DNA of 64,000 nucleotides from a virus, in IMG/VR virus record IMGVR_UViG_3300045988_160359, positions 53,570 through 117,569 of that record. One strand, written 5' to 3'. This document shows positions 363-40,170 of the stretch, piece after piece; position 1 is the stretch's first letter; each line of letters opens with the position of its first letter. The position numbers and the translations under genes are program-made. The notes beneath the pieces are model-generated. The model did not search any database. It was not told the DNA's origin and saw only the letters and a program-made list of their open reading frames with translations.

Positions 363-3300
363 ATGCCTACAAGATTATATCCTCCTCAAATAGCAGGAAC
401 ATTACCGGCATTTTACAAATCTTATGATAGTGCTACTGGAGTGTTAAAGGAAAGTTCAATCACTATCCCGTTTACTTCAAGTGCGCTAGTTAGTTCGGCG
501 GATTTTATAGGTTTTTATTTACGTTTGAAAACCTCTTCTACAAATACATATTTATTTCCGCCAATATATTCAAAAAATTATGATAGTAAAAATTCTACGG
601 TTACATTCACATTAACCGCTGATTAGAGTGCATTATTAAATGAAGGACAATATTACAAGGTCCAAATAGCTTATGTGTCTCAATACGTTGAGAGTGAAAC
701 TACTGATATTGACAATGATGGAAATATAATTACTAATAGTGTAATGAAAAAATTAACTGGTTATTATTCTACTATTGGAATTATAAAATGTGTCCAAGAG
801 CCTAAAGTTTCTATTTAGGGTTATTCAATAGATAGTATTAATTTATTTAATAATGAATTATTTGGTGTTTATGAGTTATCTTCAAATTTAGATTAGACTG
901 AAAAAGTTTATTCTTATAATTTTTCATTCTATTTAGAAGATGGGGATTTATATTACTCCACTGGAGAACTATTGCATAACAATGCTAATGATAATGAATA
1001 TGGTTTATCTATTGATTCAGTAGTTTTAAGTAGTTTTATAAAAACTAGTGAAATATATAAATTAATTTATACAGTTACTACAATTAATGGATTGGTAGTG
1101 TCTAGTCCGACTTATAGAGTAACTGCGGAAACATTATTAGCTCCTAGTAAAAATTTAAATATTTTACCAAGAGCGGATTCAGAAACTGGTAGTATTAAAA
1201 TTAATTTTAAAGGTTTAGAAAAAACTGTTAAAATTAAAAATACAATTAAGGAATTAAAACGCAAGGAAGTATATTATAATTATAGTAAATCATTAATTTC
1301 TTAGATTAAATAGAAAATCAATCCTGACTATGAATATTAGGGAGAATAGATAACTAATTTAGAATATTTATTAAAGATAAGTTCAAATGATGAAATGACT
1401 CGATTTTTTGTTGCATTACAAAAATTATTAAGAGATAATGCGGGATTAATAAGTGAACTTTGTGGAGTCTCTCCTGGTTTGTTAATGTCATTAGTTGATA
1501 TATCAGCAGACTATACTAAAGTGTTAAGTCAATATATTATATCAATTACAAAACCTACAATGGTTGAAAAAGATTTTTAGAAGATTAATGATCAATTTTT
1601 AAAGAATACTACAAATTACATTCTTACTACAACAGGAGACTATAAAAATTTAAATACAATATTATAGGTTCGCTTAAACTCTTATGTAGGATATTTATTT
1701 AGTAGTATTGCTACTGATGAAACAGATTTTGATGAAATAGTAACAGATTAGAATTTAATTAATTTGGCTCAAAGTGTTATTACATTAGCTGGATTATCTG
1801 AAGAATTGGCTATAGAATATATGAGTATTTTAGGGTATGCAGCTAGTATTGTTGCCACTGAAGAGAAATCTGAAGATACTTATTTTGGACAATATATTCT
1901 TGTGCGCGCAAGTGAAGAAGATGATTATCGCTCTTGGTTAGAATTAAAACGTTTTAAATTAGAAAATATACGACCTTCTACAATTAATTATGTCGATTAT
2001 ACAGTAAAACAAGGTGTTAAATATATATATGGGATTATTCAATATAATTTATTTGGTATTTATTCTGCAAGAATTGAGAGTGAACCAATTTCTGTTGATT
2101 TTGAAGATATTTTTCTATATGATGGAGAACGGGTGTTAAAAATAAAGTTTAATCCTAAGGTATCTTCATTTAAATCTACCATTTTAGAATAGAAAACAAA
2201 TACGATTGGAAATAAATATCCATTTATTTTTAGAAATGGAAACGTAAATTATAAAGAATTTCCAATTAGTGGATTAATTTCATATTAGATGGATAATGAA
2301 TTATTATTTTATAATCGTGAAATTGAAGAATATATTCGTAATTATACTCTTGATTTTAAATCGTTGGAACTAAAAGAACGTATTGAAAAACAAAAAGAAT
2401 TTCTTAATAAAATGGATTAGATTTTAATAAATCCTTGTGATTTAGTAGAAGAGAATATCCATAAAGAAAGAGATTTTAAAATTGAAGTATTAAACTGGTT
2501 AAATAATGGTAAACCTAAATTATTTAAATCAGGGCCTGAAGGCAACTTTATTGTTTGTATTATGAATGTATCATTATCTCCTACCGATAGTTTAGGCCGT
2601 ATGTTACATTCATTTACTGGTCAGTGTGCAGAAATAGCTGAGTTTAATTATAATAATTTATTACGTTATGGATTTATTAAAGCAGATATTGTTAGTAAAT
2701 ATGTTTCTTTATGGAAAACTTATTATTTAAATGAATATAAGCCTGGTAAAGATATCGAATTATTATTTGACTCAGGTATTAATTATTTTGCTGTAGAAGA
2801 TTTAAAACCTGGTAGTAGTATATTTTTAACTTATGGAGATACAATCGATCGGACTGAAGATGAAATCATAATAGGTATTACTGGAGCCTATCGATATGAA
2901 AATTCTTCACGAATTATTTCAAAAATTAGAATACCTAATAGTATATATAATCATCCAGTAGGAATATTAGAGTGCCAATATCAAGGTTTAAGATATTCTG
3001 ATTTTGATGCAATTACTTCAGTTAATTTAAAAACTATAGTAAGTAATCAATATGTTGGTGTTGATCCAATATTAGAAAATATTAAAGCATTTACTACCGA
3101 TCCCTCTGATTATGCTAAACAATTATTTATAAAAGCTTTAAAAGCTTTAAATGATCGAATTTTATTAAATGATAATTTATCCTATTCAGACTTGCGAGAA
3201 AAACTGGTTGAACGAGGATTTGAGCCAGGAGATATTGTTTAGCATATTAATTCATCATTTTATAACTATGAGAAAGACAAAGTTAAAATATTGAATTTAG

Positions 3301-6300
3301 AATAGTTAAAAATTAGAGTTAGAGAATTAATTCCTATTTATGCAGTTCCTTATGATTATATTACTCAAGAAGGATGGGATAAATTACCAGACTCTGTTGT
3401 TTATTGGAATTCTAATGGTATGACTACGAGTTGTTATAAGGATAAAAAAGAAAAAAGATTTAGTCGTAGTGATTATGAAAATTTATTTCCTAGTTAGAAT
3501 TTATTATATTCAGTAACACCTTTTGGTAAGCCTTATCCTATTGATGCATTAACTCCATTAGTCAAAGATTATTTTGATATTAATGATGAATTTTGTGTAT
3601 TTTAGATGTTTGAATATTCAAAAGAATATCAAACTTGGATGCCGACTTGTCGAAATAATGTTTTTAATATTGCTACTGGACAATATTATGATTGTTATTG
3701 GCAATCTGTTCTTAAAGAGTATGATACATCATATTATATTGGAGAAAAATATCGTTATGAATAGATAGTCGATATCCAACGGGATGAAGAAACACAACGA
3801 TATTATATTATAATTCAAAATAAAAAATATTATTTATCAGATGAATTTAATTTGTATGTTGAAATAAACGGAGAGTATAAATTATTAAAAGAAGTATATT
3901 TATTCCCAACAGATGAAGATGGATATTATACTATTATTACTAATAATGATTCTCGCATCCAAGATAATAGTTATTTAAATGAAGCTGTTCGTTGGAAAAA
4001 TAAAGATGATTATAACCCTGTTCCTGGGTATAATTTAACTACTAGAACTATTGATGAAAATAATATTGCTAAATCAATAGTAAAAGCTTCTGAAATTAAA
4101 CCATTTTATTTGAGAATAGATAATGCGATTCAATTAAATCAAGGAGATACATAGTATTATACAAATTTAGGTTCTCCAAAAGTAATAAAAATTGGGACTG
4201 GATTAATCGCTGAAGCTACATTTTAGTTAGAAGTATTAGACTATTTTACAGAAAAGAATGATGATAGTACATTTTTAGCTAAAAATAGATATTTAGAGCG
4301 ATCTGAAATCTTAAAGAATTTTTATCGAAATTATGAAATTTTAGGAGATGCTGATAATAATTTTTAGAGATTTTTAACATTGAGTCGTTTTTATAATACG
4401 TTATTAAAAGGATTAACTGATAGCAATAATACTCCTTATGAAGATAAAAATACATATTAGTCTAATTTAAATTCACCATTGAATTATCAGGATAGAACTA
4501 TTGTAAATGAAATTTTAAATACCGATAAAGACATAGATTTAAAAAATACTGAAATTGCTGATTTATGGACAGCAGATAATTCTTCAGTTGAAAAGAAAAA
4601 TAAAATCAAGAATGATATTAAAACTACGATAAATAAAATGCAAATAAATAAACGTATGAAAGAAGAATTAGTTTTACAAGATACTGAAGAAAATGATTTA
4701 TTTGATTTAATTAAAAATCCTACTAAAGAAGGTATAAATGATAAATTAGCTAAATTAAATGAACTATATGAATTATTAAGTTCTAATAAAAATACTACTA
4801 TTATGAATAACTAGAATATAGCTTCTGATTATGCTTAGAAATTAAAAAATATAGATTTTGCAGTTAATTCTTATAATAACGCAATCTATAATTATAAAGC
4901 TCATTTATGGTTGTATTGTTTAATTTATCAAAAAATTGCTAAATTAATATATATTGATACAGATAATTATGATGAAAAATTATTAACTGAAGATACATTA
5001 GATAAAATGGAAGCTAACATTTCAATTTCTAACATTTTAGCTGAAATAAAAAATCATTATAATAAAATAATAGAAAATAAAAGTGAGAATGCATCTAATG
5101 AAGCGGAATTAATAAAATAGAAAAATTATTATTTAAATGCTTACGGAAGTATTTAGAAAAATTATTCTGAAATTTTTACTTATAAATCAATTATAAATGA
5201 AAAAGAAGGAGATACTGCATTAGATGAATTATTAATAAAACAATTAATGAATTGTTTATTAGATATTTTTTATCAATATTCTGTAATGATATAGGCTCGT
5301 AAAAATATAAATGAATTATTGAATGGTAAGGCTTAGGATGAAGATACAGATATATTTAAAAAATATATTGGAATTAATGAAAATGCTGATTTGGCTCTCA
5401 GTAAAGTTAAACAAAAAATTAATACTTTAAAAATTGAAGTCATTAATAATAAAGACAATTTAACATTAGCAGATTTATTTTCATAGTATAATTTTTCTAA
5501 AGATAATGTTTCTTATTTTAATTCATTAAATTAGAAATTAATTTATTCTAAAAATAATGTTTTAGGATTTTTAGATAGTCATGCCACTCAAGTAAAAGAA
5601 TATGTCCAAAAAATTGATTATATGGAATATGTTTATAAAGGTGGTAAAGCTTTAGAATGGTAGCATTATAATTATTCTCATTTTATTGTATTTGATAGAT
5701 TGCCATATCAATTATGGGATTTAAATTCAAAAGATATAGATATAAAAAATTACACTTATGAAATTGAATTTAGATCAAGAATTTTAAAATCATTTAGTTA
5801 TTGGAAAGATAATAATTTTGGAGGAGAAGCTCCTGCTTATATATCTACTATGAGTTCAAATCAATAGAATGAAATACGCAGTCAAGTTAATCGTAAAATT
5901 ATTTTAGATATTAGTGAAGATAATATTAATACTGATGATTTAGATATTTATACAAGTTTTGAATTTGATGGATAGATGGACTCAGCTGAATAGAAAGCTA
6001 TTCAAAAAATTAAAATTCAAAAATTGTTAAGTATTATTGAGACATTTAAAGAGGCAACAGATTATCGTAGTGTATTAGATAGTTTAAGTGATTTAATTTC
6101 ATATATGAATAAAAATACGAATGGGCTTGGAGAAACTTGTTTTAAAACATTATATGGAGTTTCTGGCGATAAAGATTTAATTACAATACTTACAAATTAT
6201 AATTAGACTATAAATTCTATTCAAGATGAATTAATAAAAAGTAATGAATTAGATACTTAGTTTATTAAAATTGGACAAATTAGTAAAACTGATTTTGATT

Positions 6301-7469
6301 TTTTCAATCCTTCTAAAGTTTACTATATTTTAAAAGATGATAATTATTAGTTATAGACTGTTTATTCAAATACTGCTATTTATTATTTAAAATTAAAAGA
6401 TTATTTAGTAAAAACTCATTTTGAATATTATAATGCATTAATGGTAGCAAAAGATTATTAGAATATTACAACTGAATTGATTTATAGTGTTTTAAATTCT
6501 TAGAATACTAAAAAAGCAGAATTTGAATTAGGAAAAATGCAATTATATAATTCAAATGGTTTTGTTCCTACTGTTATCACTAAAGAAAATTATCAAGAGT
6601 GTAATAATTTTGTTTATAATAATGTTACGAAATTTGAACGACAAACATTTGATTCAGCTATTAGTTATGATAAAAAGTCCAAAGATACATTCTTAGCGAA
6701 AAATATCACTGGTGGAGATAATGCATTATCAAGTCATAATAATTCAATTAATGCAATTTTAACTAATTATAATAATTTAATAAAGAAAAATGGTATCGTA
6801 AATAAATTATATTCAACTTATTCAAAATTAGGCAATACCCCTATTGTTTTTACAGATGAGGGAAATAATGCTCTTAATGCATTAGATTTGTCTAAAATAA
6901 ATATAAGTATATTAACTGCATCAGATACAACAGCAGTAGGAAAATTTAAACATCTATTATTAATTAAATATTTATCTAAATTTATTAATTTGTTCTATTG
7001 GTGCAACACTTAGTTGTTTGTTGAATATGATTTAAATATTCGCTTAGCTGAATTATATACTAATTTACCAAAACCATGGTCTGAAGCTTCTGAGAACTAT
7101 CCTTCTATAACTGCTCATGGTATTGTATATTGGTATTTAGAATATGTTTTAAATAAAGCTATAAATGATTATAATGATGCATTGGAATAGGCGGAATTAT
7201 TAAATATTTTTTATACAAACAAATAGACAAACTATAAAGAGAAATAGGCATTATATGAGGCTAAATATAAAGAATATTTATAGATTTTTACAGCATTTAT
7301 GGCTCCTGAATATAAGGAATATTGGAAATATTATAACTCATCTGATATATTTAATAAAAATGAACAAATGAAAAAGTTAATTGAAGAAGTCAAAAATCTA
7401 TGGTATGATTTTATTTTAACTCTTGATAAAGGATTCAAAAAAGAGATAGAGGCGGGTATGTACCAATGA
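363..7469 (+). CDS. Giant virion/tail protein (2368 aa; tape-measure-like position and size); TAG-recoded
   Basis: RBS aaaggagaatgatgtATG precedes it. Ten ORF-track fragments (363, 972, 1395, 1764, 2562, 3852, 4479, 4911, 6024, 6537) are all in frame 0. Codon-by-codon reading finds only TAG (about 45) and no TAA/TGA in frame 0 until TGA at 7467-7469. The gap 3243-3851 was checked position by position and is open. The frame-1 ORF 3574..3768 is a spurious overlap. Confidence 0.75.
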
Positions 7470-10237
7470 AAAATAACCCATTGTTAGATACAAATTTTTT
7501 AAAACAGTTAGATTTAGAAAATTAGAAAGAAATATTTATTAAAATTATTAGTCTAAATCAAAATGAAGAACCTATTGAAAGTATCGAAGGCCGTGCAACA
7601 GGAGGATCCATTAATATTGATGGATCCTCCGCAGTTAGACGAACTTGTTCAATTTCATTGGTTGCTGAAGGAGTTAATATTACTGATGTATATTGGGGAT
7701 TAACTACTAAATTTTCATTACAAATTGGATTAAGCAATAATATTAATAAAGAATATGAAAAAATTATTTGGTTCCCACAAGGTATTTATCTAATTACATC
7801 ATTTAAAACAGATGTCACTACTAATGGATATAAAATTTCTATTTCAGGTAAAGATAAAATTTGTTTATTAAATGGTGAAATTAGTGGTAATTTTCCTAAT
7901 CCAATTGATTTTGCTATTGAATTAGTAGAATATAATTCTAAAACATTAACAGTTGATGCTATGATTACTAAATATAATTTAGTAGAAAATTTACATTGGA
8001 AAGAAAATGAAGGAAAACGATATTTAACTACATTAGGTATTTCTTATATAAATGAACTTACTAATGAAGAATCTGTTGCAGAAATAATTGATGTAAAAGT
8101 TGGAAATAAAGTTAGTAAATATAAAAAAGTAAAAAAATCAATTGGATATATTATTAGAGAAATGATTCATCATTATGGAAATGAACCATTCCATAATATT
8201 TTAATTAAAGATGTAGATAATAAAGGTTTAGAATTATTAAAATATTCAGAGGGTGATTTTTATGCGTTTTTAGATAAAACTGGAAAATATACTCATCTAG
8301 AATTTATTGATACATTAACTAGATATAAAGCTGATACAAATGTTCCAATTAAATTGAGCGATTTAACTGATGGAGATTTTTCTACCCCTGATAATCTACG
8401 GACAAAAATAAAAAATAATATTAGTGATACTGATTATTATTATGTGAATAAAATTAATGGCACTGACGCTGCAGGTTATCGTTCAGTCGAATTATATTGG
8501 CCTTCTAATGATGGTTTAGTTGTAAATGCAGGCGATACAATTACTTCTGTATTAGATAAAATTTGTTCAACGTTTGGTGAATATGAATATTTTTATAATG
8601 TATAGGGATAGTTTGTTTTTTAGAAAAAATAGACTTATATAAATTAGTCTTGGGATAATATTGTAAAGACAGAAAATAGTGCAAATCCAGATTTAGATTA
8701 GGATATTGATAATATTTATAAAGAAATTAAAGGAGAATATAAATATAGTCAATTATATGAAGAAGCCGCGATGCTAGCCTCTAAAAGTATTTATAATTTT
8801 TCTAATAATATTTTAATTTCATCATTTTAGAATATGCCTGATTTTTCTAAAATTAAAAATAATTTTACTATTTGGGGTAAACGTAAACCAGCATCGACTA
8901 ACAGCGAAGGTACACCAATTCGTTTGCGGTACGCGATTGATGAAAAGCCTAAGACTTATACCACTTTTGAAGGAAAAACTTATCGCACTTATGACCCTTT
9001 AGAGACGGGTGAATTTGTTAAAACTCCGAATCCACCAGATACATTGCTTGGAGAGCCTCTTGATGAAAATTGGTGGGATGTGAAAGATTGGGCGGAATTA
9101 TATCGAATGTTTATTGGAGAATATCCAAATCGAATGTTAAGTGCCTATTATTCAGACAAAGATGGTGTTTTTATTGATTTAAATTCATTATATAAATCAG
9201 CCACAAATGAAGAATTAATGCAAAAAGTCTATGGTCGTTCTATTGGAAATTATTTTGGCAGATGGATAAATAATTGGCAAGATGAAAAATTATATGTTTT
9301 TGATTTATTACCTGATAATACTATTGGTTATGTAGGACATGGTCCTTATTGCACTCACTATTGGGATGAATGGTTTGATCCTTTATACCAAAAGGGTGGT
9401 AAAGCATATGTATATAAACCATTAATGCCAGGACAAGATAAAAATACAGTATATTATGCTAAATAGAATTGGCGAGAGCTAATTTATCAAATGGCATTAG
9501 ATTATCAATTATATGGCCATAATGATAATTATGCAGTAAAATTAGCTTAGTTAAATCCAGAATATCCTAATGGCAGAACAGGTTATGAAAGTTATTATGC
9601 AGATTTTTTAGCTGAAGACGGATGGCGTAGTATATATAATCCAAAGTCAGAAGATTCTAAAAATTTTTTTGTAGGGAATATGTTGACTGATAAAGAAAAA
9701 GTTTATTACGGCTGGAATAGAAATGTTATAAATGATCCAACTCTTTTAAATTTTTGGATTGATTTTGTCGAAGATAGTGAAAGTACTATAGGTAAATATT
9801 CTGTTCGAGCAATTGGAGATAGGCCGAAAATTGTTAATAATGATGCTATTAGAGCTATTATTTATAGAGATATTCCTAATATAATTTATATTACTCCAGA
9901 AAAGTATGAACTGCAAAAATAGTAGAATTTATTACAAGATGGATATGATTATTTACCTTTACCAAATATTTATGAGAGTAAATTTTCAATTACTACCAAA
10001 GGTAAAAGTGCTTATTCTGAACTTAATGATTTATTATATTAGTATGCTTATATGAATGAAAAAATTAATATAAAAACTATTCCAATATATTATTTAGAGC
10101 CAAATAATATTATTACAGTCGATGATAATAATAGTAATATTCATGGAGAATATGTCATTAATAAAATATCATTATAGCTAACGCATAATGGTATAATGAC
10201 AATTACAGCGACAAAAGCGCCTCCAAGATTATTATAA
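7466..10237 (+). CDS. Large structural protein (923 aa), baseplate/distal-tail-like position; TAG-recoded
   Basis: ATG at 7466 overlaps the upstream TGA (caATGAaaa). The frame-2 fragments 7658, 8834 and 9680 join through TAG codons. Gaps 8606-8833 and 9467-9679 were verified open. The gene stops at TAA 10235-10237 and is followed by a strong RBS. Confidence 0.75.
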
Positions 10238-10253
10238 GAGAGGAGAAGGAGTC

Positions 10254-10598
10254 GTGGCAAAAAAAATTATTTAGTTTAGATATTTTGGCGAATTAAATGA
10301 AAAAAACTATCCACCTACAATTACTAAGACTAAATTAATGTCTGGAGTTGTATTTGATGGATATACTCCAATTATTAGATTAGGCATTCAAGCGCTTCCT
10401 GGTACTAAATTTAGATTAAATGCAAATCAAGATTATATTATGATTGGTAGTATTGGTTTATATGAATTAGATATGACTCAAGGATCAGGTTCAGTGACTT
10501 CTATTAATTTTGATGAAATGTCATTAACTAATATAGATGAGAATGAAGATGCTTATTTGTTGGTTGATATATTATATGAATAGGAGGGATCTAAATGA
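10254..10598 (+). CDS. Small structural-module protein (114 aa), GTG start
   Basis: RBS aggagaaggag lies 5 nt upstream of GTG 10254. Frame 0 contains ORF 10338..10583, reads through TAG 10581-10583 and ends at TGA 10596-10598. Confidence 0.5.
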
Positions 10599-14835: not shown

Positions 14836-14862
14836 TAAAATTTTTTAGGGAGGTCTATTATA

Positions 14863-27163: not shown

Positions 27164-27772
27164 ATGATTACTAATTATCAAGATTATGAGAATAAGCTTT
27201 GGTCCATTGATAAATAGATGCGAACTTCCAAAGCCATTCTCCTTCCAACTCCACCTAAAGAAGAATTAATCCCTATCGATTTAAATGAACGTAAAATAAA
27301 AGTGCCTAAGTCCTTCATTATCGTCTCTCAGGACCATTCGGCTGAGACTTTATACTTTACATTTGATCGATATTTTGATGGCATGGATTTATCTAATACT
27401 TGCTGTATCATTCAATTCCAAAATGCAAAAGGTGAAGCTTATTATTATGTAGTACCTTATATGGATATTACTACTGATAATGTAAATCAAAAAATTATTA
27501 TGCCTTGGGTAATTCAAAATGCCGCTACTAAATATGCTGGTACTGTAAAATTTGCTATTAAATTTTTTAAATTGAATGCTGCAGGACATTTAATATATGA
27601 ATTAAATACATTAGTTGCTGAAGCTATTGTAGAACAAGGTTAGAATTGGGATTTAGATAATATCTCTCAAGAAGAATTTGTTTTTGATAAAGCATTTATT
27701 TAGGCAGTTCATGATTTAGAGCAAGCACATCAGAAAGGTACATTTGCTTTAGAGTGGATTGATAATTTTTAA
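27164..27772 (+). CDS. Structural protein (202 aa), paralogous N-terminal domain
   Basis: RBS aaaggagaa is followed by ATG 27164. The gene has 3 in-frame TAG and stops at TAA 27770-27772. Confidence 0.65.
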
Positions 27773-27784
27773 TAAAATGAAAAT

Positions 27785-27825
27785 AAAGGGAAGACTTTAA
27801 ATTAGTCTTCCCTTATTTTTTTTGG
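27785..27825 (+). terminator. Rho-independent terminator (aagggaagact-ttaaatt-agtcttccctt followed by T9)
   Basis: A perfect 11-bp stem is followed by a long T-run. Confidence 0.85.
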
Positions 27826-27901
27826 GTAAATATAAATAATATTTTGATGTAAATTTTTATAATAAATGTATATAATTTACAAAGAGGAAAGGAGTTATAA
27901 A

Positions 27902-29569
27902 ATGCTTAAAAAAGGCGATATAATTACTCTTGACTTAGGTGATGGATATGGTAATAGAAAATATCGTATTTTAAAAATAGATGGCCCTATAGCTGAAGTT
28001 TTAGGTTTATTTGATTTAAATTATGGACAAGTAATACCTTACACTAAAGATGTATCTCACACAATTACAATTGGTAATATTACTTTCCAAAATTATAATA
28101 ACAATGAAATTGATCAATTTATAAATAATGAATGGTATAATGATCATTTATCCAATAAAGCAAAATCAGCAATTTAGCCATAGTTATTTAATCAAGATGT
28201 TTGGTATTTTACTATTAACGGTTATTTACACAATGGTTCTCCTAAATATAATGGCGTTTATAGTAATGGTAGTTATCAAATTAGTAATGCTGGTATATTT
28301 TCTACTATTGGACCTAAATATATTCGCATCCCAGGAGTCCAAGATATTTTAGATTATTTTGCAGATAAAGATTTAAGAGTCGATCCTGAGGGTATATTTT
28401 CTAGTAAAAATATTTGGAAAATGTTTTGGGATCAAGATAAGGGCAACTCTGAAATGATGTGGCTGTCTTCTAGTTCTGCCAATGATTCTACAAAAGTTGG
28501 ATTTATTGATGGTTCTACTGGATTAGTAAGTATGCAAGGAACTGCTACTTATATAGGTACAGTTCATCCAATATTTACTATTGATTTAACTCAATTTTTA
28601 CCTTTAGAATTTAAACAGTATATTTCTCCTTATACAAATACAGTTATTTTACAAGATGATGCATTAAATTTATTAATGCGTATGACAAAATGTTATCCTA
28701 TTGCGGGAGATGGTACTGGTATTACTTTGGTTCCTACTCCAGATGATTAGCATATTCAAATATAGAATGCTATAAAAATTTATTCAGTCTTAAGTGATGG
28801 AACGGCTGAAGAAAAAGAAAAGCATCCAGGATGTATTTGCATTTGGGATACTTCAGCTAGCAAAAATAATAAACAATATATTTAGGCTGGTTCATTATTA
28901 GATTTTTATACAAGTGAATTATCATCTGGCCTTAAAGGAAAAGACATAAAAGCTAATCAATATGGCTCTTTTATTCTTATTAAAAATAAAGATTATAAAA
29001 ATCCTATTGTAGTTCCTATTAAAGGATTTGACAGCCAAGGAAATTTAATTTTACCAGGAAAAAAAATTCAATCTGCTATAATTGAATCTACTGGAGCTAT
29101 TACGGCCACTGGTAATATTACTTCAAGTGCTATTATCACAGGGAAAAAAGTGCGTGGTGCAGTATTTAATGATTATGCTGAGTATAGAGAATCTTATATT
29201 AAAGAGCCTGGCCGTTGTGTAATTGAAACTGGTTATGGAGATTTAGAATTGTCAACTAAACGTTTACAATTGGGCGGCAATATTATTTCAGATACATTTG
29301 GTTTCTCTATTGGCGAAACAGATAAAGCACAAACTCCTATTGCTGTTTGTGGTAGAGTATTAGCTTATCCTGATGAAAATAAAGAATTATATAAGCCAGG
29401 AGCGGCTGTGTGCAGTGGTCCAAATGGAACTGTGTCATTAATGACTCGTGAAGAAATTAAAGAATGGCCTGATGCAATAATTGGGTATGTAAGTGAAATT
29501 CCTTATTATGATACTTGGGGAACTGATAATATTAAAATAAATAATAGAATTTGGATTAAAATAAAATAA
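27902..29569 (+). CDS. Tail fibre-like protein (555 aa) with a conserved C-terminal module shared with the 33640-40170 fibre
   Basis: RBS aggaaaggag is followed by ATG 27902. The frame-2 fragments 27866, 28421 and 29150 fuse via TAG. The C-terminal 135 aa (NDYAEYRE...DTFGFSIGETDKAQTPIAVCGRVLAYP...CSGPNGTVS...RIWIKIK) is about 55% identical to 39760-40170. The gene stops at TAA 29567-29569. Confidence 0.7.
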
Positions 29570-29612
29570 AAAAAAATAGCAGATAACTGAAATGTTATCT
29601 GCTATTTTTTAT
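29570..29612. terminator. Bidirectional rho-independent terminator (A9, then atagcagataac-tgaaat-gttatctgctat, then T6)
   Basis: A perfect 12-bp stem is flanked by an A-run and a T-run. It lies at the convergence of the + gene ending at 29569 and the - gene ending at 29705. Confidence 0.85.
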
Positions 29613-29704
29613 AATTCAGTTGATATATTTTTAAAATAACTAATTTGATTATTTATATCATATACCCCTGAAACAATAATTCTTTTTAATGTAAAATTAT
29701 CATT

Positions 29705-30919
29705 TAAATTAGTATAGTCATTAGGAATAAGTGCCTCAAAATTTACATAATAATAATCAATATCTTTATCATATATATGTTGTCCTACATTAATTATTGA
29801 CCAAATTGTATCTTTAAATTTTATTTTATTAAATTTTATATTATCAAAATAATTTATTGCAATTAAATATAATAAATTTGCTGGTGTTTCACGGTGATTA
29901 ATAGTAAAAGTAGAAGTATTTACATCTCCAAAATACTAATAATTACCTGTCCAAACTTGAGGCATTGTATCCATATTAACATAAATTACTTTATTATTAT
30001 CATATTCCCATTTTGTTACTACAGTATTATGAGTATTTTCAAAATATATGGCAAAAGGTATTGTTATTGGTAGTGTTATTTTATTAAAATTTAAAAGAAA
30101 AGCATAATATAATGTTGTATTATTTTTTGCTGTCTCAAATTCTGTTGCATTTTGGATAGTATGATTGTCATCTGTAAAATAAAGAGAATAATATCCTTTA
30201 CTAAGCCAAATATAAAAAATTGAATTTATTTCTAAAGCATTTACTTCTTCTGTTGAAAGTTTAACTAATTCAGACCCAGAGCGTTTATATATTCTATCCT
30301 CATAATTTTCTTTATAATAAGTTAATTCTTCTACAGTTTTACAATTTATATCAATGAAATCAGTATCTGCTTTAGTAAAATAATAAACATTTTCATTATA
30401 ACTTTGTTTAGGGTCTACGGGATAAAAATTCGTTTCTTGACTGGTAATATAAACAATATTATCATAATTAGAATTATTAAAATACTGTTGAACTTCTTCC
30501 AAAGCTAAATAACGATATTTACCTAAATTTTCATTCTGTAAATTAAACAAAGCTGTTTTTAAATTTAAATTTAATTCTGCAATTTCTTGAGCAGTAGGTA
30601 ATGGTAATGAATCTTTTAGATTATTTTCAATTGATTCAATTTTATTGGCATTTATACCTGTTGTGGTAATAAGAGTGCCAATATCACTTTTATTAGAGTT
30701 TATTCTGTCATTTAATTTTTCTTGCTAAGTTGATAAATTATCAATAGTATTTTTAAGAGTTTCTAATGATTCAACAGTTTGCTATAAATTTGCTATTTTA
30801 TTCTATAAGTCAATAATATCCTAAGCATTGATATCATCAAAATTTAAATTATTAATTTTATTTAAAATTTCTTGCCACAAAGCTTTAATGCTTTCATCGG
30901 TCCAATAATAATTATTCAT
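29705..30919 (-). CDS. Coiled-coil protein (404 aa) on the opposite strand inside the structural block; TAG-recoded
   Basis: Reverse-strand RBS ggagg is followed by ATG (cat at 30917-30919). ORF 29936..30550 ends in TAG, not a true stop. Reading continues through 5 TAG codons in total to TAA (tta at 29705-29707). Confidence 0.6.
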
Positions 30920-31000
30920 ATTATATTTCCTCCATTCTCTTTATAAAAATAAAAAATATAAATAAAAAATTATTTATATCTGTCCAATTTTAATTATAAT

Positions 31001-31029
31001 TTGACATTTATAATTTTTTATGGTATACT
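31001..31029 (+). promoter_or_regulatory. Sigma70-like promoter (TTGACA, 17 bp, TATACT) for the radical-SAM cassette
   Basis: The -35 TTGACA is at 31001-31006, a 17-bp spacer follows, and the -10 TATACT is at 31024-31029. The RBS aaaggaga and ATG 31056 lie downstream. Confidence 0.55.
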
Positions 31030-31055
31030 TAAATTATATGAAAGGAGATTTGCGA

Positions 31056-31832
31056 ATGGCAGCAACTGATTTTTCTTCTTTATTTGCTGGAGAAAAAATA
31101 AAAAAAGCAGATTTAATTTAGTTAAAACAAGAAATACGTGAAATGATATTAAAACGTATGTATAATATTAATATTTCACAATATGGTTCTAGTTTATATG
31201 ATTATACTGATTCTTAGAAAGATTTAACACTTCAAGATGAAGAGATTATTAATGATTATTTTAATAAGATTTTAGAGCCTATGCAAGCCATTAATCCTAC
31301 TAAATTAGGATTTAACGAAAAATATGATGCCACCTCTAAAAAAACAACTCTTTTCAAATAGGATGAAGCTATTCCAAATTTAAAAGAATTAATTTCATTT
31401 TTTTAGATTTGCCAAGCTGAAAAAAATCAAAATAAATTAGATATTAGTAAGAGTAATTGTTTAAATCAATGTACTGGCATGTGCGTTAACTTATGTGCTA
31501 CTGGATGTACTGCACGTTGTGCTAGTAGTTGTTCTGGAGACTGTGAAGGTCGAACTTGCCAAAGTGGTTGTGATGCAGGTTCAGGAGGCTCCACTCCAAA
31601 CCCTGATCCTACACCACCCCCTAGTGGAGGAGGCGGCGGTGGGTGTCCTTGTACTGGAAATTGCACGGGAAGCTGTAATATTGCTTGCACAACTACTTGT
31701 CACGGTGGATGCCGTGGAGGATGCTCTGGGTATGCTTGCAGAAATGATTGTAATAACACATGCTCTGGCAACTGTGGTCGTAGCACTTGTACGGATATAT
31801 GTAATGGTGGTACATAGGGCTCTATGCATTAA
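31056..31832 (+). CDS. Cys/Gly-rich protein (258 aa): N-terminal ~150-aa domain plus a C-terminal ~110 aa with ~32 Cys in C-x3-C/CxxC repeats; candidate radical-SAM substrate/precursor
   Basis: Frame 0 was verified open from ATG 31056 through 4 TAG codons into the GC-rich segment 31466-31830 (CTGMCVNLCATGCTARCASSCSGDCEGRTCQSGCDAG...GGGGGGCPCTGNCTGSCNIACTTTCHGGCRGGCSGYACRNDCNNTCSGNCGRSTCTDICNGG). The gene stops at TAA 31830-31832. Confidence 0.7.
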
Positions 31833-31865
31833 TATAAAAAAGAGTAAAAGGAGATTTTATTATAA

Positions 31866-32144
31866 ATGATTAAAAAAGTTCAAATTCCTCAAGAAATTAT
31901 TTTAGAGGTTCAACGATTATGGTTTGAATATCAATCTAATTTAAATATTTTAGGTTATTTAATGACTTAGAATGATATTAATAAAGAATTATTAGCAGAA
32001 TATAATTAGGATACTAAAATTCGATTTACTGAATGTGAAATGTATAAACAAAAAATAGCAGATTTATATAACCCCTTTGATTTTAATTGTCAATATATTT
32101 TTGATTTTGATAATAGTTTAATTCAATATAATAAAAATGATTAA
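31866..32144 (+). CDS. Small protein (92 aa) between the Cys-rich gene and the rSAM gene; possible PqqD-like recognition/chaperone partner (speculative)
   Basis: RBS aaaggag is followed by ATG 31866. The gene has 2 TAG and its TAA at 32142-32144 overlaps the rSAM ATG 32137 by 8 nt. Confidence 0.5.
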
Positions 32145-33495
32145 AAGAAATAAAATTCAAGAACATTCAGAAATAATTCATAATTTATATAAAGAGTTAT
32201 ATCCTAACGCTAATAATATTTTATGTCCTTCAATTACATTTCAAGTAACGGACGATTGTTGTTGTAACTGTAGCTATTGTTATCAAGGAAATAAAAATAA
32301 ACATTATATGACTCCTGAAACTGCTATACAAATTGTTGATTATTTATTTGATCTATATGAGAAAAATGATATTAATAATTTGATTAATAAAAATACAGCA
32401 GGTATTATATTAGAATTTATTGGTGGAGAACCATTGATGAATATTGATGCTATTGATGCGGCTTGTACTCATTTTTTAAATTATTGTTTAATTCATAATC
32501 ATCCTTGGCTACGAACTTTTAGAATTTCAATGATCTCTAATGGAAAATATTATTTTGATTCAAAAGTTCAAGATTTTTTAAAACGTTTTCATAATTTTAT
32601 TTCTTTTGGTATTACTTTAGATGGCCCAGAAGATATACACGACAAATGTCGTAAATATTTTGATGGAACAGGTAATTTTAAAGATGCTTTTGCAGCATTA
32701 AAATACCATAATCAGCATTATAATTAGATTAGAACCACCAAAGTCACTATTGCTCCAGAAAATTTATTAGAGATAAATAAATTAATTGATTTCTTTATAA
32801 ATGAAGCTGGCGCTACTGATATTTTTATGAATCCTGTATTTGAAGCAGAGTGGACTAATGAAGAAGCTTCTATTTATTATTAGGAATTAAAAAAAATAGC
32901 AGATAAAATGTTAAATGTTAATCAATCAAATGAATTAATTAATAATATAGTATTTGCTGATAATATTGGATACCCATTAGAGGATACTGATACTTTAAAT
33001 TGGTGCGGTGGTACTGGCGCAATGATGAGTTTTGATTATAAAGGGAAAATTTACCCTTGTATTCGATATATGGAATCATCATTGGGGAAAGAAAGAGAGC
33101 CTATTATAATTGGTTCTATTAATACAAATGATAATAATGAAAAATATTTAAAGAATTTAGAAAATTTAAAAAAAATTACTCGACAATCTCAATCTACAGA
33201 AGAATGCTTAACTTGTCCAATTGCTGCTGGATGCGCTTGGTGTTCTGGGTGGAATTATTAGTTATACGGCACACCCAATAAACGCTGTACTTATATTTGC
33301 CCAATGCATAAAGCTCGTGTCTTAGCAAATGTTTATTATTGGAACAAGCTTTATAAGATTAAAAATCAAGATAAAGTATTTGAGTTAAATCTTCCAAAAG
33401 AAGAGTGTTTAAAATTTATTAATGAAAATGAATATAATATGTTGTTAGAATTAATTCAAAAATAGAAGGACAAAATAAATCAAATAGATAATTAA
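32137..33495 (+). CDS. Radical SAM / SPASM-domain enzyme, anSME (anaerobic sulfatase-maturating enzyme) family peptide-modifying maturase
   Basis: It has the CxxxCxxC motif (DDCCCNCSYCY), GGEPL, SNG, the LDGPEDIHDKCRK motif (compare anSME LSMDGPKEIHNLNRK), and a C-terminal SPASM cysteine array (CGGTGAMMSFDYKGKIYPC ... ECLTCPIAAGCAWCSGW ... CTYICPMH). ORFs 32137..32727 and 32908..33261 are joined through TAG in frame 1 (lines checked). The gene stops at TAA 33493-33495. Confidence 0.8.
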
Positions 33496-33639: not shown

Positions 33640-36600
33640 ATGGCTTTATTTAAAATTAATAAAGGTTTAGCAACAAACTTAGCAAAGAATATGCCTTATG
33701 CCAAAGAAGGCTTTGCATATTTTACTAAAGATGATGGTAAATTTTACATTGATATTGATGGTGATGGTACTACTACTAAAGCTGAAATTAATGTCAATCG
33801 TATACCATTAAATGCTGCTAAAGCTGATATAGCTACAATGATTCAAGCTACAGCAATGGCAACTGATGATAGTAAAGTATATCCTATTTTAGCATTTAAT
33901 ATAACTGATTCTACTAAGAATTTAGTTGAAGCTAAATATAGTCAAATTGGTATTAAAAATGGCACTCTTGTTATTCCAAGCGTTGAAGATAAAGATGAAA
34001 TCCTTATTTCTAATGAGGGTCTTGGTCGTGGTATTGTTATTGATAATAAAGGTACTAACAATGCTATTGAAATTCTTAATGGTAAAGGTATTAAAGTTGC
34101 ACAAGATCCAACTGAAAATTTAGAATTAACTACTAAATAGTATGTTGATAATAAATTAGCTAATAAATCAAATACCGGACATAATCATGATGCAACCTAT
34201 AAAAAAATTCAAACAGCAGTACCTAGTCCTAAAGCATCTAATACAGATATTTCATTTATTGATACAGTATCATAGGATACTTAGGGTAAAATTACTGCTA
34301 CTAAAAAAACAGTAAGAGATGCTTCAGCTAGTCAATCTGGTGTTGTATCTACTGGGACTCAAACATTTGCCGGAGAAAAAACATTAAATAATAAAACTCA
34401 TTTTTCTAAAGGCTTTGATCTAAAAACTGATAGCGGAAATGCTTAGTTTAACGCTAATACTGTAAGTGTTAGCAGTGGTACTGATTATGTTGATTTATAT
34501 GCCTCTACTATTGGAGGTGGAAATGGCAATAAGGCTAGACCATTAGTATTAAATGCTAATGCAAATGGTTCTGGTAATGTAGGTATTGGAATTACTTAGC
34601 CAACAGAGAAATTAGAGGTAGATGGCAATGTTAAAGCTATTTAGTTTAAAGGTAATGCTGATACAGCTGATAAATGGAAAACGATTAGAAAACTAACAAT
34701 TGGTTCCACGGGAAAAGATGTTGATGGTAGTGCTGATGTTAACTGGTCATTAGATGAAATTGGTGCAGCTGCAAAAAAACATACCCATACTAAATCAGAT
34801 ATTACAGATTTTGCTCATGCTCATGATGACAGATATTATACTGAAAATGAGATAAATGATAAATTAAAAGCGATTAATGATAAAATTGGGGCGTTATTAG
34901 GAGCTAATGATGCCTTAGTATTTAAAGGTACTATTGACGGAAAAAATCCCTTACCTACTGCTAATTATGAAGTAGGTCATACATATAGAGTTAATGAAGC
35001 TGGTACATATGCAGGTTAGAAATGTGAACAAGGCGATTTAATTATTTGTATTGCTGATGCATTATCTACAAGCACGCCTCATTGGACTGTCGCACAAACA
35101 AATATCGATGGGGCAGTAATTGGACCTGTTAATGCTACTGGTGATAATATTGTTTTATTTAATGGAGCTACTGGTAAATCAATAAAAGACAGTGGTAAAA
35201 AATTAAGTGATTTTGCTCCAAGTAAACACGATCACATTATTACAGCAACTGCTAAAAATGATGGTGTTGTAGTATTAACAGGAACAAGTGGCACTAATGC
35301 CGTTACTTATGAGGCTACTCATGCAAAGAAGGGGCCAAACACTGCTGCTAATACAGTAAAAGGTCCTGCTGAAGATGTATCAATTAGTGGAGCGGGTAAA
35401 TCAGGTTCAATTGTAATTCCAAAAGTAACTGTAGATGCATATGGTCATACTACTGGATTAACTGAATAGACATTAACAATTACTCTTCCTAATGATACTC
35501 ATCATCAAAGTAGTACAGTTATTACAGATAATACAGCAGGGACAACAAATAAAGCCTCGGAAAATGGTAAGACTTATTTAAATCATATTGAAAACGGTGT
35601 AGTTCGTAGTACTCATAAAATAGTAGGGGCTGGTAGTACAAAAGTTTCAAGTGATGATGATGGAGTTCTTACGATTACATCTAAAGACACTGTTTATAGT
35701 CATCCTACCACTCCTGGTAATATACATTTACCAGCGGGAGGAAAAGTAGGCGATGTATTATTATGTGCTGGTGATAATACTGGAGCTGGTAAATGGGGTA
35801 TCGATCCTAATATTAAAACTGCCATTGATAATTTGGACGTTGATGAAACCGGTGGCGAGGGTAAATATATTCAGGCGATTAAACAAGTTGATGGTAAAAT
35901 CGTTGCTACAGCCGAAACAATTGATACTACCTTAAGTGCTTCAAGTACCAAACCAGTTTAGAATAAAACAGTAAATGATGCTCTAAGTAAAAAAGTTAAT
36001 ACTACTACATTTAATTCTCATACAGGTAATATGACTATGCATATTACGGATGATGAGCGTATTAAGTGGGATGCTGCATATACACATTCTCAATCAACAC
36101 ATGCTCCTGCAAATGCTGAAAAGAACCAAAATGCATTTAGTAATATTCAATTAAATTCTGATACAAAAAATATTATTAAAGCAGATAATGCCACTGATAC
36201 TATGATACTAAAAAGTGGCGATAATATTTAGATTACTGGTGATATTGAGACTGATACAATTATTATTAGTGCTACAGATACGAAATATAGTAATGCCTCT
36301 ACTGAGTCTTCTGGATTAATGTCTGCGCAAGATAAGAAAAAGTTAGATGGTATTGCATTAAATGCTAATAATTATTCGCATCCAACAACTGCTAAGCATG
36401 AGGCAGCAGCAGTTAAAGTAGGAAATGATGAACATGGTCATGTAGTTTTAGGTAGTGTTCTTACTAAGAGTGATGTAGGTTTAAGTAAGGTTGGTAATTT
36501 CTTAGCTGTTTCTACTGTAGCTGATCAAAATTTAACTGAGGATTAGAAGTCTAATGCTAGAGCGAATATTGGTGCTGGCACTAGTTCTCTTACTATTGGT

Positions 36601-39600
36601 AAAGGTGAAAATGATGCAGCGGCGGGTAATCATACTCATAATTATGCTGGCTCAGCTAGGGCCGGCGGTCCAGCAAATTCAACTAAGGGTACATTAACAT
36701 TAAAAGCTGGAAAGAATACATAGACATTTAATGGTAGTGAAGATAAAATATTTACAATTACTGCTAGCGATTTAGGATTATCTACAGCAATGCATTTTAT
36801 TGGTATTGCCACTAAAGGTCCAATTGCAGATAATTTTGATCCAGGTATTGCTAATTATGGTTTTACTAATGCTCAAACTGGTGATGTTATTATTTCTAAA
36901 GATGGAGATCAAGAATATGTTTTAATTATTAAAACAGATGCTAATAATAATCCAGTATACCATTGGGAATTACTTGGTCCAAATGGAAGTTATGCAATAT
37001 CTGACCATAAACATTCTAGCGCAGATATAAATTCAATGACCGGATATGCTAAAGGCACGGCAAAGGCACCTATTACAATTAATGATACTCTTAACACAGC
37101 AATTGGAAAATTAGAGTATAAAGTAGACAATAAAGTTGATTAGACCGCTGACAAGGGTTTATCAACTAATGATTTTACTAATGCTTATAAATAGAAGTTA
37201 GATGGTATCGAAACTGGAGCTCAAAAAAATCAAAATACATTTAGTAATATAACTATTGATAAGAAAACTATTAGTGCTGATAGTGCTACTGATACATTAA
37301 CATTAGTAGCAGGAAGTAATGTAACATTAACTCCTGATGTAGATAATGATAAAATTACTATTGCTGCAACAAATACTGATACTAAAGTTACTGCGGTAGA
37401 AAATCACTATACTCCAAAAGCAGATCCAAATGCAGCTTTATCTATTGATGCTTCTAGTACTACAGCTGCCATTTGGGACACAACAAATCTAGTTACTGGT
37501 GTTAATTTACAACGTGATGCTAAAGGCCATGTAACAGGTGTTACTGTTGATTCAATTAAAATGCCTGCTAATCCTAATACTAATACTCATTATACTAGTA
37601 AAAATATAATTGGAGATTCTGCTACTGCTACAGCAAATGCGACTGCGACTAATGGCAATGTTTATTTAAATCATTTAGAAGAGAGTGTAGTAAAAAGCGC
37701 GCATAAAATTAGTGGTGCTGGTGCAACAACAGTTACATCGGATGGTTATGGTAATATTACTATTACATCTAAAAATGACAATACTTGGCAAGCAAATACT
37801 AAAGATGCTAATGGTTATGTTACTGCACCTGGTGCTGTGGCTAATAAAGTATGGAAAACTGATGAAAAAGGTAATCCTGGTTGGCGTGATGATGCAGGCA
37901 CAAATTCGGTGACCGGACCTAATTCTTCTACTGTAAATGCTGTTCCCACATTTGCTGATGCAACAGGTAAAGTCATTAAAAATAATTCAGCAGTTACTAT
38001 TAATGATACTGGATTATTTACTGCTCCTTATATTGTTACAGGCACTGATAAAACTCATTATTTTCAAAGTAGAAAATTCCGTGGTGAAGGCAATGCTGAT
38101 ACATATTATCATGCTATTGATTTTGGATATAGTGGACATAATCAAGTTGATTTTCATGAATATGGTGGAATTTGGAATTTCTATGAAAATACTAAAGGAA
38201 CTGCGGCTGATGGAAAATTAGTTGCTTCCATTAAGCCTGATGGGTTTCATGGCAATTTAAACGGTAACGCAACCAGTGCCGATAAAGTTAATAATAATTT
38301 AGTTATTAAGCTAAACAGTGGAACTACTGAAGGAACAAACCAATTTACTTATAATGGTAGTGCTACTAAAAATATTAATATAACTCCAGCTAATATTGGA
38401 GCGGCTTCAAGTTCTCATAATCATGATTCTAGTTATGTTAAAAAATCTGGAGATACCATGACTGGCGATCTTAAATTCTAGAAAACTAATAGTGATGGTA
38501 CAACTTCAATAACTGCTACTATTGGAGCTATTACAGGATATATTACTGGTACGTGGCTTCAAACAACAAATGTTGGAAATAAAGCTGGAGATTTTGCTAC
38601 TATTGATAGCTCTGGTTGGATTTATAAACGAACAGCAGCACAAGCAAGACAAGATATGGGTCTTTCAACTGCTATGCATTTTATTGGCAAAGCGACAGTT
38701 GATATTACAGACGGCAGCACAGTTGATCCTAAAATCACTGGCTATACGACTAAAACTGCCGGTGATGTAATTATTGATAAAAATAATTCATATGAATACG
38801 TTTGGACATTAGAAGGAAAATGGGAACGTTTAGGTCCAGATGGCAGCTATAGCGTAGTCGGACACACTCATGATGATAGATATTTAAAATTAACTGGCGG
38901 AACATTATCTGGTGATTTATTAATTACTGATAAAATGTATGGATTTAAAATTGGTGCTTCTTCTTCTAATATTTGGCTTGGATTAGAACGAAGTAATATG
39001 GGAGAACCCCAATATGGATTATATGACCATTTAATGGGACAATGGATTTTAGAAAGTAATGGAACTCTTGCTAAATTCCACGGCTGGTCAGATGGAGCGT
39101 TTACTGCATCAAATGATTCTGATGGCAATCCAATTTCATCTACTTATGTTAAAAAAGCCGGTGACACAATGACCGGGGATTTAACTCTTAATAAAAAATT
39201 AATAGCAAATAATCTTATAGTTTTAAAAAATGGATAGACTTATGGAACCAGCGCTCCTACCAGTGGCACAGCTGGCCAATTATTCTTTGCCCAAGATACT
39301 AGTGATTCAGATTATTTGCCATTAACAGGTGGCACATTAAGTGGTAATCTAACTCTTAATGAAAAATTATTAATTACTAATAAAATGTATGGAACTACAA
39401 AGCCTAGCAATCCAGTAGAAGGACAAATTTTCTTCCAAGAGAATGATGGTTCTTTAACATTACCTGCTGGAGGAACAGCTGGATAGTATTTAGTTAAAAA
39501 TAGTTCTAATGATAGCGATGCTAGTTGGAAGAGTTTACCTGCATTAAATTATTTACCATTATCTGGTGGTACTTTAACAGGAAATCTTACTATTTCTCGT

Positions 39601-40170
39601 TCAGATACAAATGATGCTACTGTTCGTGTTACTAATTCAAAAGGATCTATCGGATTATTATCTTCTACCAATTGTGGTCTATATGATTATACTAAGAGTA
39701 AATGGTTAATTTATACAGATGGTACAAAAGCTTCAACTTCTTACGCGCTATATGGTGCAGTGTGGAATGACTATGCTGAATTCCGTGAAGGAGATACTAT
39801 TGATGCTGGTCGTTGTGTAGTTGAAGTTGGTGATGATACTCTTATTACTTCGACTGAACGTTTGATGCCGGGTGCGAATATTACATCTGATACATTTGGT
39901 TTTGCTATTGGTGAGACTGAACAAGCTAAAACTCCAATAGCAGTAAGCGGACGTGTTTTGGCTTATCCATATGAATCTCGTGAAGAGTTTAAAAAGAATG
40001 TTGGACGTCCAGTATGTTCCGGCCCTAATGGGACAGTTTCTATTATGACTGATGAAGAATATAGAAATAAAGGTTATTGTGCGATTGGCACGATTTCAGC
40101 AGTTCCTGATTATGAAGAATGGGGAACTGGAAAAGTTAAAGTTAATGGGCGCGTATGGATTAAAGTGTGA
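33640..40170 (+). CDS. Giant tail fibre (2176 aa) with HxH motifs and repeated GGTLTGNL/GDTMTGDL fibre repeats; conserved C-terminal module
   Basis: RBS gaagggag is followed by ATG 33640. The N-terminus LFKINKGLATNL...GFAYFTKDDGKFYID carries the tail-fibre motif. Frame 1 is line-aligned, and every line from 34081 to 36060 was checked to contain only TAG. ORFs 33640, 36031, 36319, 36790, 37561, 38656 and 39760 are all in the same frame. Motifs include YVKKSGDTMTGDLKF, LPLTGGTLSGNLTLN, HTHTKSDITDFAHAHDDRYY and TAGQLFF / TAG-(TAG)-YLV. The gene stops at TGA 40168-40170. Confidence 0.8.

Follow-up and report, generated by a model that had tools for sequence, protein, structure and literature searches.

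Does a phage late region that breaks into short pieces at its TAG codons in fact encode a few giant proteins, and, if so, what kind of proteins would they be? The question was raised by a stretch of 64,000 nucleotides (nt) from an uncultivated gut-metagenome phage, corresponding to positions 53,570-117,569 of IMGVR_UViG_3300045988_160359 and hereafter called the window. A sequence-only reading had proposed that three of its intervals, 363-7469 (gA), 16664-24838 (gB), and 33640-40170 (gC), are each a single gene once TAG is taken as a sense codon. Taken together, the analyses described herein make it likely that the window spans the tail genes and the replication genes of a large siphovirus-like gut phage with TAG recoded to glutamine, distantly related to the phAss-1 group, and that gA, gB, and gC are genuine late genes making one polypeptide each. 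In this reading, gA is an enlarged member of a phage protein family and not a tape measure, gB is an adhesin-like fibre, and gC is a modular repeat fibre.

The window has a guanine-cytosine (GC) content of 30%. When TAG was counted as sense, positions 1-41913 of the plus strand resolved into a compact gene array, and both the coding strand and the GC skew flipped near 42 kb into a minus-strand replication block.

Integrity of the three giant reading frames

The intervals proposed for gA, gB, and gC proved to be exact. As shown in Table 1, TAG is the sole interruption of each frame, and homology to related proteins was unbroken across the TAG positions. At the composition of the window, the probability of TAA or TGA per codon was 0.062, and the log10 probabilities of the gA, gB, and gC frames by chance were -66, -76, and -61, respectively. 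In the corresponding frame of the opposite strand, the same intervals contained 121-241 TAA/TGA codons, and the longest TAA/TGA-free run found in 20 shuffles was 186 codons. A chance origin of the three frames is excluded. The standard code would leave no unbroken piece longer than about 274 (gA), 605 (gB), and 429 (gC) codons, and thus the genes are hidden by fragmentation.

All three true starts are preceded by a Shine-Dalgarno sequence (AAGGAG or AGGGAG), and the N-termini of the giants fit the consensus of their families. In the searched protein database, in which the proteins of the relatives are code-15 translations, gA had eleven full-length homologues (2262-2429 amino acids (aa), 42-98% identity, 100% query coverage), and its more distant relatives (1615-3139 aa) were invariably encoded by one open reading frame (ORF). 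The search with gB gave 169 homologous clusters, the best 120 of which were ~2040-2870 aa in length, while that with gC gave 250 mosaic relatives, the best 120 being 1200-2500 aa.

Restart signals, namely an in-frame ATG with a Shine-Dalgarno sequence after a TAG, were found after none of the 45 TAGs in gA, none of the 17 in gB, and one of the 17 in gC. In addition, a codon alignment of gA was made from the window copy and the DNA of six relatives, seven sequences in all; it contained 139 columns with at least one TAG, and in none of them was TAG conserved across the seven sequences. Neither result disturbed the single-gene reading.

Assignment of TAG to glutamine

The same alignment revealed how TAG is exchanged. 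The codons facing TAG were CAA (256), CAG (31), and AAA (124), and in 17 of the 20 columns of invariant glutamine, TAG was mixed with CAA/CAG. The substitution spectrum of TAG was closest to that of glutamine (r = 0.94), arginine being the next (0.85). The same trend was seen in gB, in which TAG lies mainly opposite glutamine codons. As for gC, 15 of its 17 TAGs were common to the relative L012, which is too close for an informative codon test; protein alignments with more distant fibres crossed every TAG position, and glutamine was the commonest aligned residue. These exchange patterns indicate that TAG is a glutamine sense codon in these genes.

TAG terminates no gene in the window, all 34 listed genes ending in TAA or TGA. 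Its share of the glutamine codons is 7-78% in the plus-strand late genes and 48% in gA. On the minus strand, 11 of the 17 genes, including those for Pol III alpha and NrdD, are free of TAG, and six neighbouring genes hold 1-5 TAGs each; recoding within the early region is thus mosaic. The use of TAG for glutamine, tRNA-Sup-CTA genes (three of them in phAss-1), and a 3149-aa tape measure were reported for phAss-1 and its relatives (PMC10607447), and earlier work had described recoding that is concentrated in the genes for structure and lysis (bioRxiv 10.1101/2021.08.26.457843). The window phage shares with other recoded phages this clustering of in-frame reassigned stops, as well as replication genes that keep the standard code in part or entirely.

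A complementary explanation, to which we give an even chance, is that the high TAG load serves as a timing gate that blocks synthesis until the cell has been switched to TAG decoding. With 45 TAGs in gA, a full-length product would need near-complete TAG decoding: at 95% per codon, only ~10% of the chains would be full-length. Since the yield would be so extremely sensitive to decoding efficiency, expression of gA would, we infer, have to wait for the recoded late state. The frequent occurrence of TAG in the plus-strand late genes and its lack in the 11 minus-strand genes are in agreement with such a gate, and the same pattern and hypothesis have been published for other recoded clades (bioRxiv 10.1101/2021.08.26.457843). 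On the other hand, some replication-side genes hold TAG as well, and neither suppressor tRNA nor release-factor genes were seen within the window.

That the frames are instead strings of shorter genes, with TAG as a true stop followed by restart or by independent ORFs, has practically no chance of being correct, for although the standard code gives many short ORFs across the region and the GenBank relative phAss-1 (OQ749652) was deposited with a fragmented annotation, the TAG positions are unconserved and swap with CAA/CAG, restart signals are as scarce as given above, homology is uninterrupted over the TAGs in homologues drawn from different samples and assembled separately, and TAG ends no gene in the window.

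Table 1. Positions and properties of the giant genes, their domains, and associated features in the window (E, expect value; HMM, hidden Markov model; Ig, immunoglobulin; pLDDT, predicted local distance difference test)
Feature	Position	Strand	Properties
3' end of the ~935-aa gene that comes after the tape measure in relatives	1-342	+	Near-identical to the C-terminus of the 935-aa product of L004; homologous to phAss-1 ORF14
gA	363-7469	+	2368 codons; ATG start; 45 in-frame TAG; 0 internal TAA/TGA; TGA stop
gA N-terminal conserved domain, aa 1-285	363-1217	+	Ig/FN3-like beta-sandwiches; ~38-50% identity across the family; HMM-HMM E 3e-80 to P0315 residues 1-267
gA lineage-specific helical insert, aa 286-503	1218-1871	+	Not in shorter members; predicted helices, pLDDT mostly ~80-88 from aa 350
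gA conserved core, aa 504-1350	1872-4412	+	Kept in all homologues; invariant block around aa 580-760; HMM-HMM E 4e-134 to P0315 residues 268-626
gA variable helix-rich extension, aa 1351-2240	4413-7082	+	Poorly conserved; Pro ~1%, low Gly; PDB sequence matches of coiled-coil type only
gA C-terminal segment, helical and conserved (aa 2241-2368), with the TGA stop	7083-7469	+	Kept in many giant homologues; stop overlaps the next ATG (ATGA)
923-aa partner gene	7466-10237	+	Always after gA-family genes; phrog_1887 'tail protein' (1e-8); weak DUF5047/DUF5048
gB	16664-24838	+	2724 codons; 17 in-frame TAG; 0 internal TAA/TGA; TAA stop
gB N-terminal fibre-anchor-like motif, aa 1-50	16664-16813	+	Alignable with the N-terminal ends of gC and of two neighbouring proteins (303 aa and 552 aa)
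gB phrog_24896 region, aa 269-585	17468-18418	+	E 4.8e-20
gB conserved central domain, phrog_14959, aa 1550-1809	21311-22090	+	Function unknown; E 8.9e-43
gB C-terminal BspA-type leucine-rich repeats, aa 2554-2635 (Pfam)	24323-24568	+	LRR_5, E 6e-4
gC	33640-40170	+	2176 codons; 17 in-frame TAG; 0 internal TAA/TGA; TGA stop
gC repeat copy aa 602-705, paired with aa 1296-1402	35443-35754 and 37525-37845	+	47-48% identity, E 1e-15
gC conserved C-terminal cap, aa 2039-2176 (~138 aa)	39754-40167	+	57% identical to the end (29156-29566) of the 567-aa fibre-like protein 27866-29569
NrdD-like reductase	48519-50768	minus	Replication block
Pol III alpha	51437-55408	minus	Replication block

gA as an enlarged member of a phage protein family

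A profile of the gA family was searched against 1.84 billion representative proteins. As a result, 3445 representative clusters at 50% identity were obtained, 2158 of them at E < 1e-30. The members are mostly complete and ~850-1100 aa in length, with a median of ~990 aa among 140 newly listed best matches; typical ones begin with the motif M..KLYPP.I.GT.PAF, have the N-domain and the core in common, and end in a short helical stretch, and the short members carried no names in the sources. All 14 family members that were scanned as shorter pieces matched phrog_30026 (function unknown), and the match in the gA core spans aa 513-778. The cultured representatives of phrog_30026 are 617-aa proteins of the Enterococcus phages VRE9/EF1/H1. 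Searches of Pfam, PHROGs (with the full-length protein), NCBIfam, and PDB sequences (hereafter, the four collections) brought up nothing for gA beyond coiled-coil noise, which in the PDB included haemagglutinin HA2 and designed coiled coils, and no DNA similarity of gA to GenBank phages was found.

Comparison with 45 homologues yielded the block map of gA summarized in Table 1. gA was also mapped on an 849-aa member (P0315) encoded at the gA position in another TAG-recoded phage (L017), relative to which gA carries aa 286-503 (~220 aa) and ~aa 936-1255 (~320 aa) as additions, together with ~1050 aa replacing a hairpin of ~55 aa. The AlphaFold model of the 849-aa member, built from 100 sequences, showed a chain of beta-sandwiches ending in a two-helix hairpin (pLDDT 89; predicted template modelling score, pTM, 0.82), and a fold search with this model returned Ig/FN3-type matches only. 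In the AlphaFold2 (AF2) model of gA residues 1-1200 (pLDDT 68), the N-domain agreed with that of the 849-aa model, and the insert was helical. For aa 1-285, the AF2 prediction was beta-rich (pLDDT ~80) and gave FN3 fold matches. These profile and model comparisons place gA, as an enlarged member, in a large but uncharacterised family of phage proteins.

The partner gene that adjoins gA (Table 1) varies in size from ~740 to ~1025 aa across the family. Its homologues include CDS0034 of the Enterococcus phage VRE9_4, ORF22 of phAss-1 (E 2e-100), and the gene after the 849-aa member in L017. No match to PDB sequences was obtained with CDS0034.

Gene order and the position of gA in the virion

In the relatives, the late genes follow a conserved order: the tape measure, a gene of ~925-935 aa, the gA homologue, genes of ~880-925 aa and ~113 aa, a gene of 1056-1755 aa, two genes of ~302 and ~551 aa, and the gB homologue. 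The first three steps of this order, with a ~930-aa gene in the middle, were found in four relatives, and PF10145 was detected on two of the tape measures (L003 and L007). The window opens inside the ~935-aa gene, and gA thus lies two genes downstream of the tape measure. In the 97%-identical contig L014 (IMGVR_UViG_3300045988_147738, of a ~166-kb genome), 359-aa major-tail-like, 363-aa, and 174-aa chaperone-sized proteins are followed, at the place of the tape measure, by a gene of ~2766 aa. Nothing resembling a sheath gene was recognised within the ~6 kb read upstream, which agrees with the siphovirus-like reading proposed for the phAss-1 group (PMC10607447). The 359-aa protein (L014, 2870-3949) matches phrog_2729, labelled 'head and packaging / virion structural protein', and its N-terminus resembles by eye the phAss-1 ORF32 'tail fiber protein'; the family annotations thus conflict.

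The gene order in this clade makes it most likely that gA has a structural role in the distal tail, as part of the tail-tip or baseplate complex, and its helical extension would form an elongated projection, probably a coiled-coil.

Several points weigh against this assignment and against the overall reading given at the outset. The most conserved segment of gA, aa 580-700, was poorly modelled, and the lists returned by the fold search contained generic Ig/FN3 matches only and no solved phage tail-tip protein. A Dit-like or Tal-like identity was rejected for the gA, 935-aa, and 923-aa families alike, the hhalign probability against SPP1 gp19.1 and gp21 being below 1%. Among species-representative genomes, the gA family occurs only in metagenome bins, mostly labelled Bacillota, and some of the labels are inconsistent. 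In phAss-1, the gA-like gene and its partner are located between the portal and major capsid genes, away from the tape measure, and in the Enterococcus phage VRE9_4 the pair sits after the lysis genes; gene order therefore backs a tail role in this clade only. As regards the decoding machinery, no tRNA was found in the window or in 13 related loci, a suppressor with a CTA anticodon included.

No catalytic domain was found in gA, gB, or gC within the sensitivity of HMMER searches of the four collections. A joint proposal, which we consider rather unlikely, is that the ~1050-aa extension of gA, in whose place most family members have just the ~55-aa hairpin, and its 220-aa insert are a working module and not padding, and, separately, that the invariant Cys/His/Asp-rich central domain of gB is an unrecognised enzyme. 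Located at the tip of a very long (~400 nm) tail, such a module in gA might act as an extended coiled-coil probe, as a second ruler-like element, or as one that penetrates the cell envelope.

Less probable still is a packaged internal or ejection protein, multifunctional and injected in the manner of the giant virion proteins of crAss-like, N4-like, or MuF-polyvalent systems. The sequence-only reading had likewise hinted at injected multifunctional proteins. The giant size of gA and its lineage-specific expansions are in keeping with this possibility, as is the helix-rich extension without an assigned function; moreover, the phAss-1 homologue adjoins the portal gene, and minor head proteins that are packaged are typically encoded there. 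However, the four collections revealed no polymerase, peptidase, lysin, toxin, or MuF domain, nor any lytic, RNA-polymerase-like, depolymerase, or tape-measure domain, and no membrane-like segment was found in gA. The scaffold of gA consists of Ig/FN3-like domains arranged in a chain, as is typical of virion proteins that are exposed, and the gene lies within the tail-tip block in this clade next to a constant partner that matches a 'tail protein' PHROG. The idea of injection thus found no support.

Lastly, the earlier placement of gA at the tape-measure position, which drew on its location upstream of large tail genes and fibres and would suit its large size and a helix-rich C-terminal ~1000 aa low in Pro and Gly, is ruled out by gene order and domain content: the place directly after the chaperone-sized genes is held by the separate ~2766-aa gene upstream of the window, whose L003/L007 homologues carry PF10145; no tape-measure domain was found in gA in Pfam, PHROGs, or NCBIfam; aa 1-1300 are mainly beta-sandwich domains save for one helical insert, and not helical nearly throughout as in a tape measure; there is no hydrophobic segment; and the family members are usually only ~850-1100 aa. 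We therefore retain gA as an enlarged family member, most likely in the distal tail.

Genes accompanying gA

Between the 923-aa and 1070-aa genes, a GTG-start ORF of ~114 aa with a strong Shine-Dalgarno sequence was noticed at 10254-10598. A gene of 113-114 aa occupies this position in four relatives, and one of 86 aa in L003.

In phAss-1 (OQ749652), the gene after the tape measure (14730-21197) is annotated with 6468 bases, ~2155 aa, and is similar to the ~935-aa gene of this clade over the N-terminal ~100 aa and over two further short stretches. The tape-measure-adjacent gene is thus enlarged in phAss-1 and gA here, different members of one gene set having grown in different lineages.

gB as an adhesin-like fibre

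From its sequence, gB reads as an adhesin-like tail fibre or receptor-binding protein. Four N-termini, those of gB, gC, and the two neighbours named in Table 1, align over the anchor-like motif, for which no significant Pfam model was found; a 'faint' match to Mtd_N was seen on a homologue of the 552-aa neighbour. gB also contains Gly-rich linkers and Ig-like modules. At the other end of the protein, the LRR_5 match scored 20.1 bits, below the Pfam cut-off of 27.7. LRR_5 was found in 16 of 18 gB homologues (best E 8.6e-17), and the gB family profile matched PDB 4gt6 (E 7.6e-15), the leucine-rich repeats being matched at profile positions ~2404-2575. It is most likely that these repeats bind the host surface. 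The earlier description of two giants with a fibre N-terminal motif and fibre repeats accordingly stood in part: an anchor-like motif can be aligned among gB, gC, and two neighbours, and internal repeats are present in gC, but gB has Ig-like and leucine-rich-repeat modules instead.

The phrog_14959 domain at the centre of gB also occurs in hypothetical proteins of relatives of the Bacteroides phage p00 ('Hankyphage') and in gp353 of Bacillus phage G. Over ~1100 aa around this domain, many Cys, His, Asp, and Trp positions are invariant, which hints at a role beyond that of a spacer. A CotH-like identity of the centre was rejected: no CotH was detected in Pfam scans of 18 homologues (E <=1) or of the central segment (E <=10), and no PDB sequence match was obtained. 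Searching of a plasmid collection gave a single unannotated match, to gB.

Directly after gB, an ORF of 65 aa is present at 24854-25051. An ORF of the same length is found in the same place in L010, L011, and L012, and it may encode a fibre assembly factor.

gC as a modular repeat fibre

In addition to the repeat pair in Table 1, gC contains the pairs aa 825-881/1193-1246 and aa 1044-1125/1672-1744, along with short repeats at aa 1587-1987. PTR (PF12789), a phage tail repeat, is present in some of the mosaic relatives, and no match of gC to PDB sequences was found. The last ~190 aa of gC are at least 83% conserved behind unrelated distal domains. Judging from these repeats and from its mosaic relationships, gC is a modular repeat fibre that evolves by module exchange.

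The C-terminal cap shared by gC and the 567-aa fibre-like protein had no Pfam match (E <=10) and no PDB sequence match, and is a candidate for a chaperone-like or attachment module. Peptidase_S74 and Peptidase_G2, considered as possible identities of the cap, were rejected, as neither the families nor their solved members gave a match; the likeness to intramolecular chaperone caps is in behaviour only.

Other genes around the fibres

Upstream of gC, a 270-aa protein is encoded at 31020-31832, the C-terminal ~140 aa of which form a dense Cys/Gly-rich array of the CxxxC type. It is followed at 32137-33495 by a 452-aa radical SAM protein (PF04055, 3e-6; Fer4_12). Genes of similar sizes are present at both positions in L012, and the 452-aa product there also matches Radical_SAM. 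This arrangement may reflect a Cys-rich protein of the fibre module that undergoes radical-SAM modification.

Directly after gC, a 573-aa protein (40192-41913) contains an ALK/LTK-type glycine-rich domain (PF12810, E 2e-45) and three Listeria-Bacteroides repeats (Flg_new), a pairing of PF12810 and Flg_new that is unusual for a phage tail gene. At 29609-30919, the sole minus-strand gene inside the plus-strand late block encodes 436 aa with 5 TAGs, a helix-rich N-terminal part, and a weak leucine-zipper match; a minus-strand gene of similar size lies at this position in L010 and L012. No tandem DNA repeats of note were found in the late block.

Comparison with the closest known systems

Among the known phages, phAss-1 and the proposed Phassvirus group (OQ749652; PMC10607447) resemble the window phage in several respects, namely their occurrence in the human gut, the use of TAG as glutamine mainly in structural genes, a tape measure of >3000 aa, Pol III alpha, and an anaerobic ribonucleotide reductase. 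In phAss-1, ORF21 ('Ig domain containing protein', 27524-33163, ~1880 aa) is the homologue of gA (core E 1e-40), ORF22 that of the 923-aa partner, and ORF14, located after the tape measure, that of the ~935-aa gene. The two phages nevertheless differ in that identity in the gA core is only ~29%, that gA is larger than ORF21, and that the pair inserted between the portal and capsid genes in phAss-1 is located just after the tape measure here.

The Enterococcus phages VRE9_1-4, EF1, EF5, and H1 (134-142 kb) are the only cultured phages with a detectable homologue of the gA core. Their pair CDS0033 (617 aa, phrog_30026) and CDS0034 (921 aa, phrog_32343), in this order, matches the gA core and the partner, and these phages, like the window phage, also have Pol III alpha and, where the tape measure is expected, a gene of >2500 aa. 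In contrast to the window phage, they are annotated under the standard code, CDS0033 matches gA aa 525-777 only, and the pair, both members of which are annotated as hypothetical, comes after the lysis cassette. The literature on these Enterococcus phages gave nothing useful.

For gB, the counterparts are the BspA-type leucine-rich-repeat surface proteins (LRR_5; PDB 4gt6, 4fs7, and PcpA 4cp6), to which the repeats of the gB family C-terminus match. Unlike in those proteins, the repeats of gB come at the end of a 2724-aa phage fibre that bears an anchor-like motif at its N-terminus and a large domain in its centre.

In siphoviruses, Dit and Tal (SPP1 gp19.1 and gp21) are expected in the slot after the tape measure; here that slot is taken by three genes, gA and those of 935 and 923 aa on either side of it, and, as given above, their families show no profile similarity to Dit or Tal. 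The gA segment aa 580-760 looked by eye like a Dit tube-like domain, but hhalign did not support this.

Implications

Neither TAG recoding in late genes nor the occurrence of giant structural proteins is new, both having been described for the related phAss-1 group, and hence the gain lies in annotation and family definition and not in principle. In the window, ~20 kb, about half of the late block, amount to three proteins, for which standard-code pipelines would report dozens of fragments; such annotation breaks up the largest structural genes of this phage clade. The main value of the present analysis is twofold: the gene models are put right, and a large dark-matter family is defined and given a predicted fold. 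With its confident fold prediction, its constant partner gene, and no fewer than 3400 clusters (50% identity), the gA family offers a concrete structural target for the tail tips of uncultivated gut phages.

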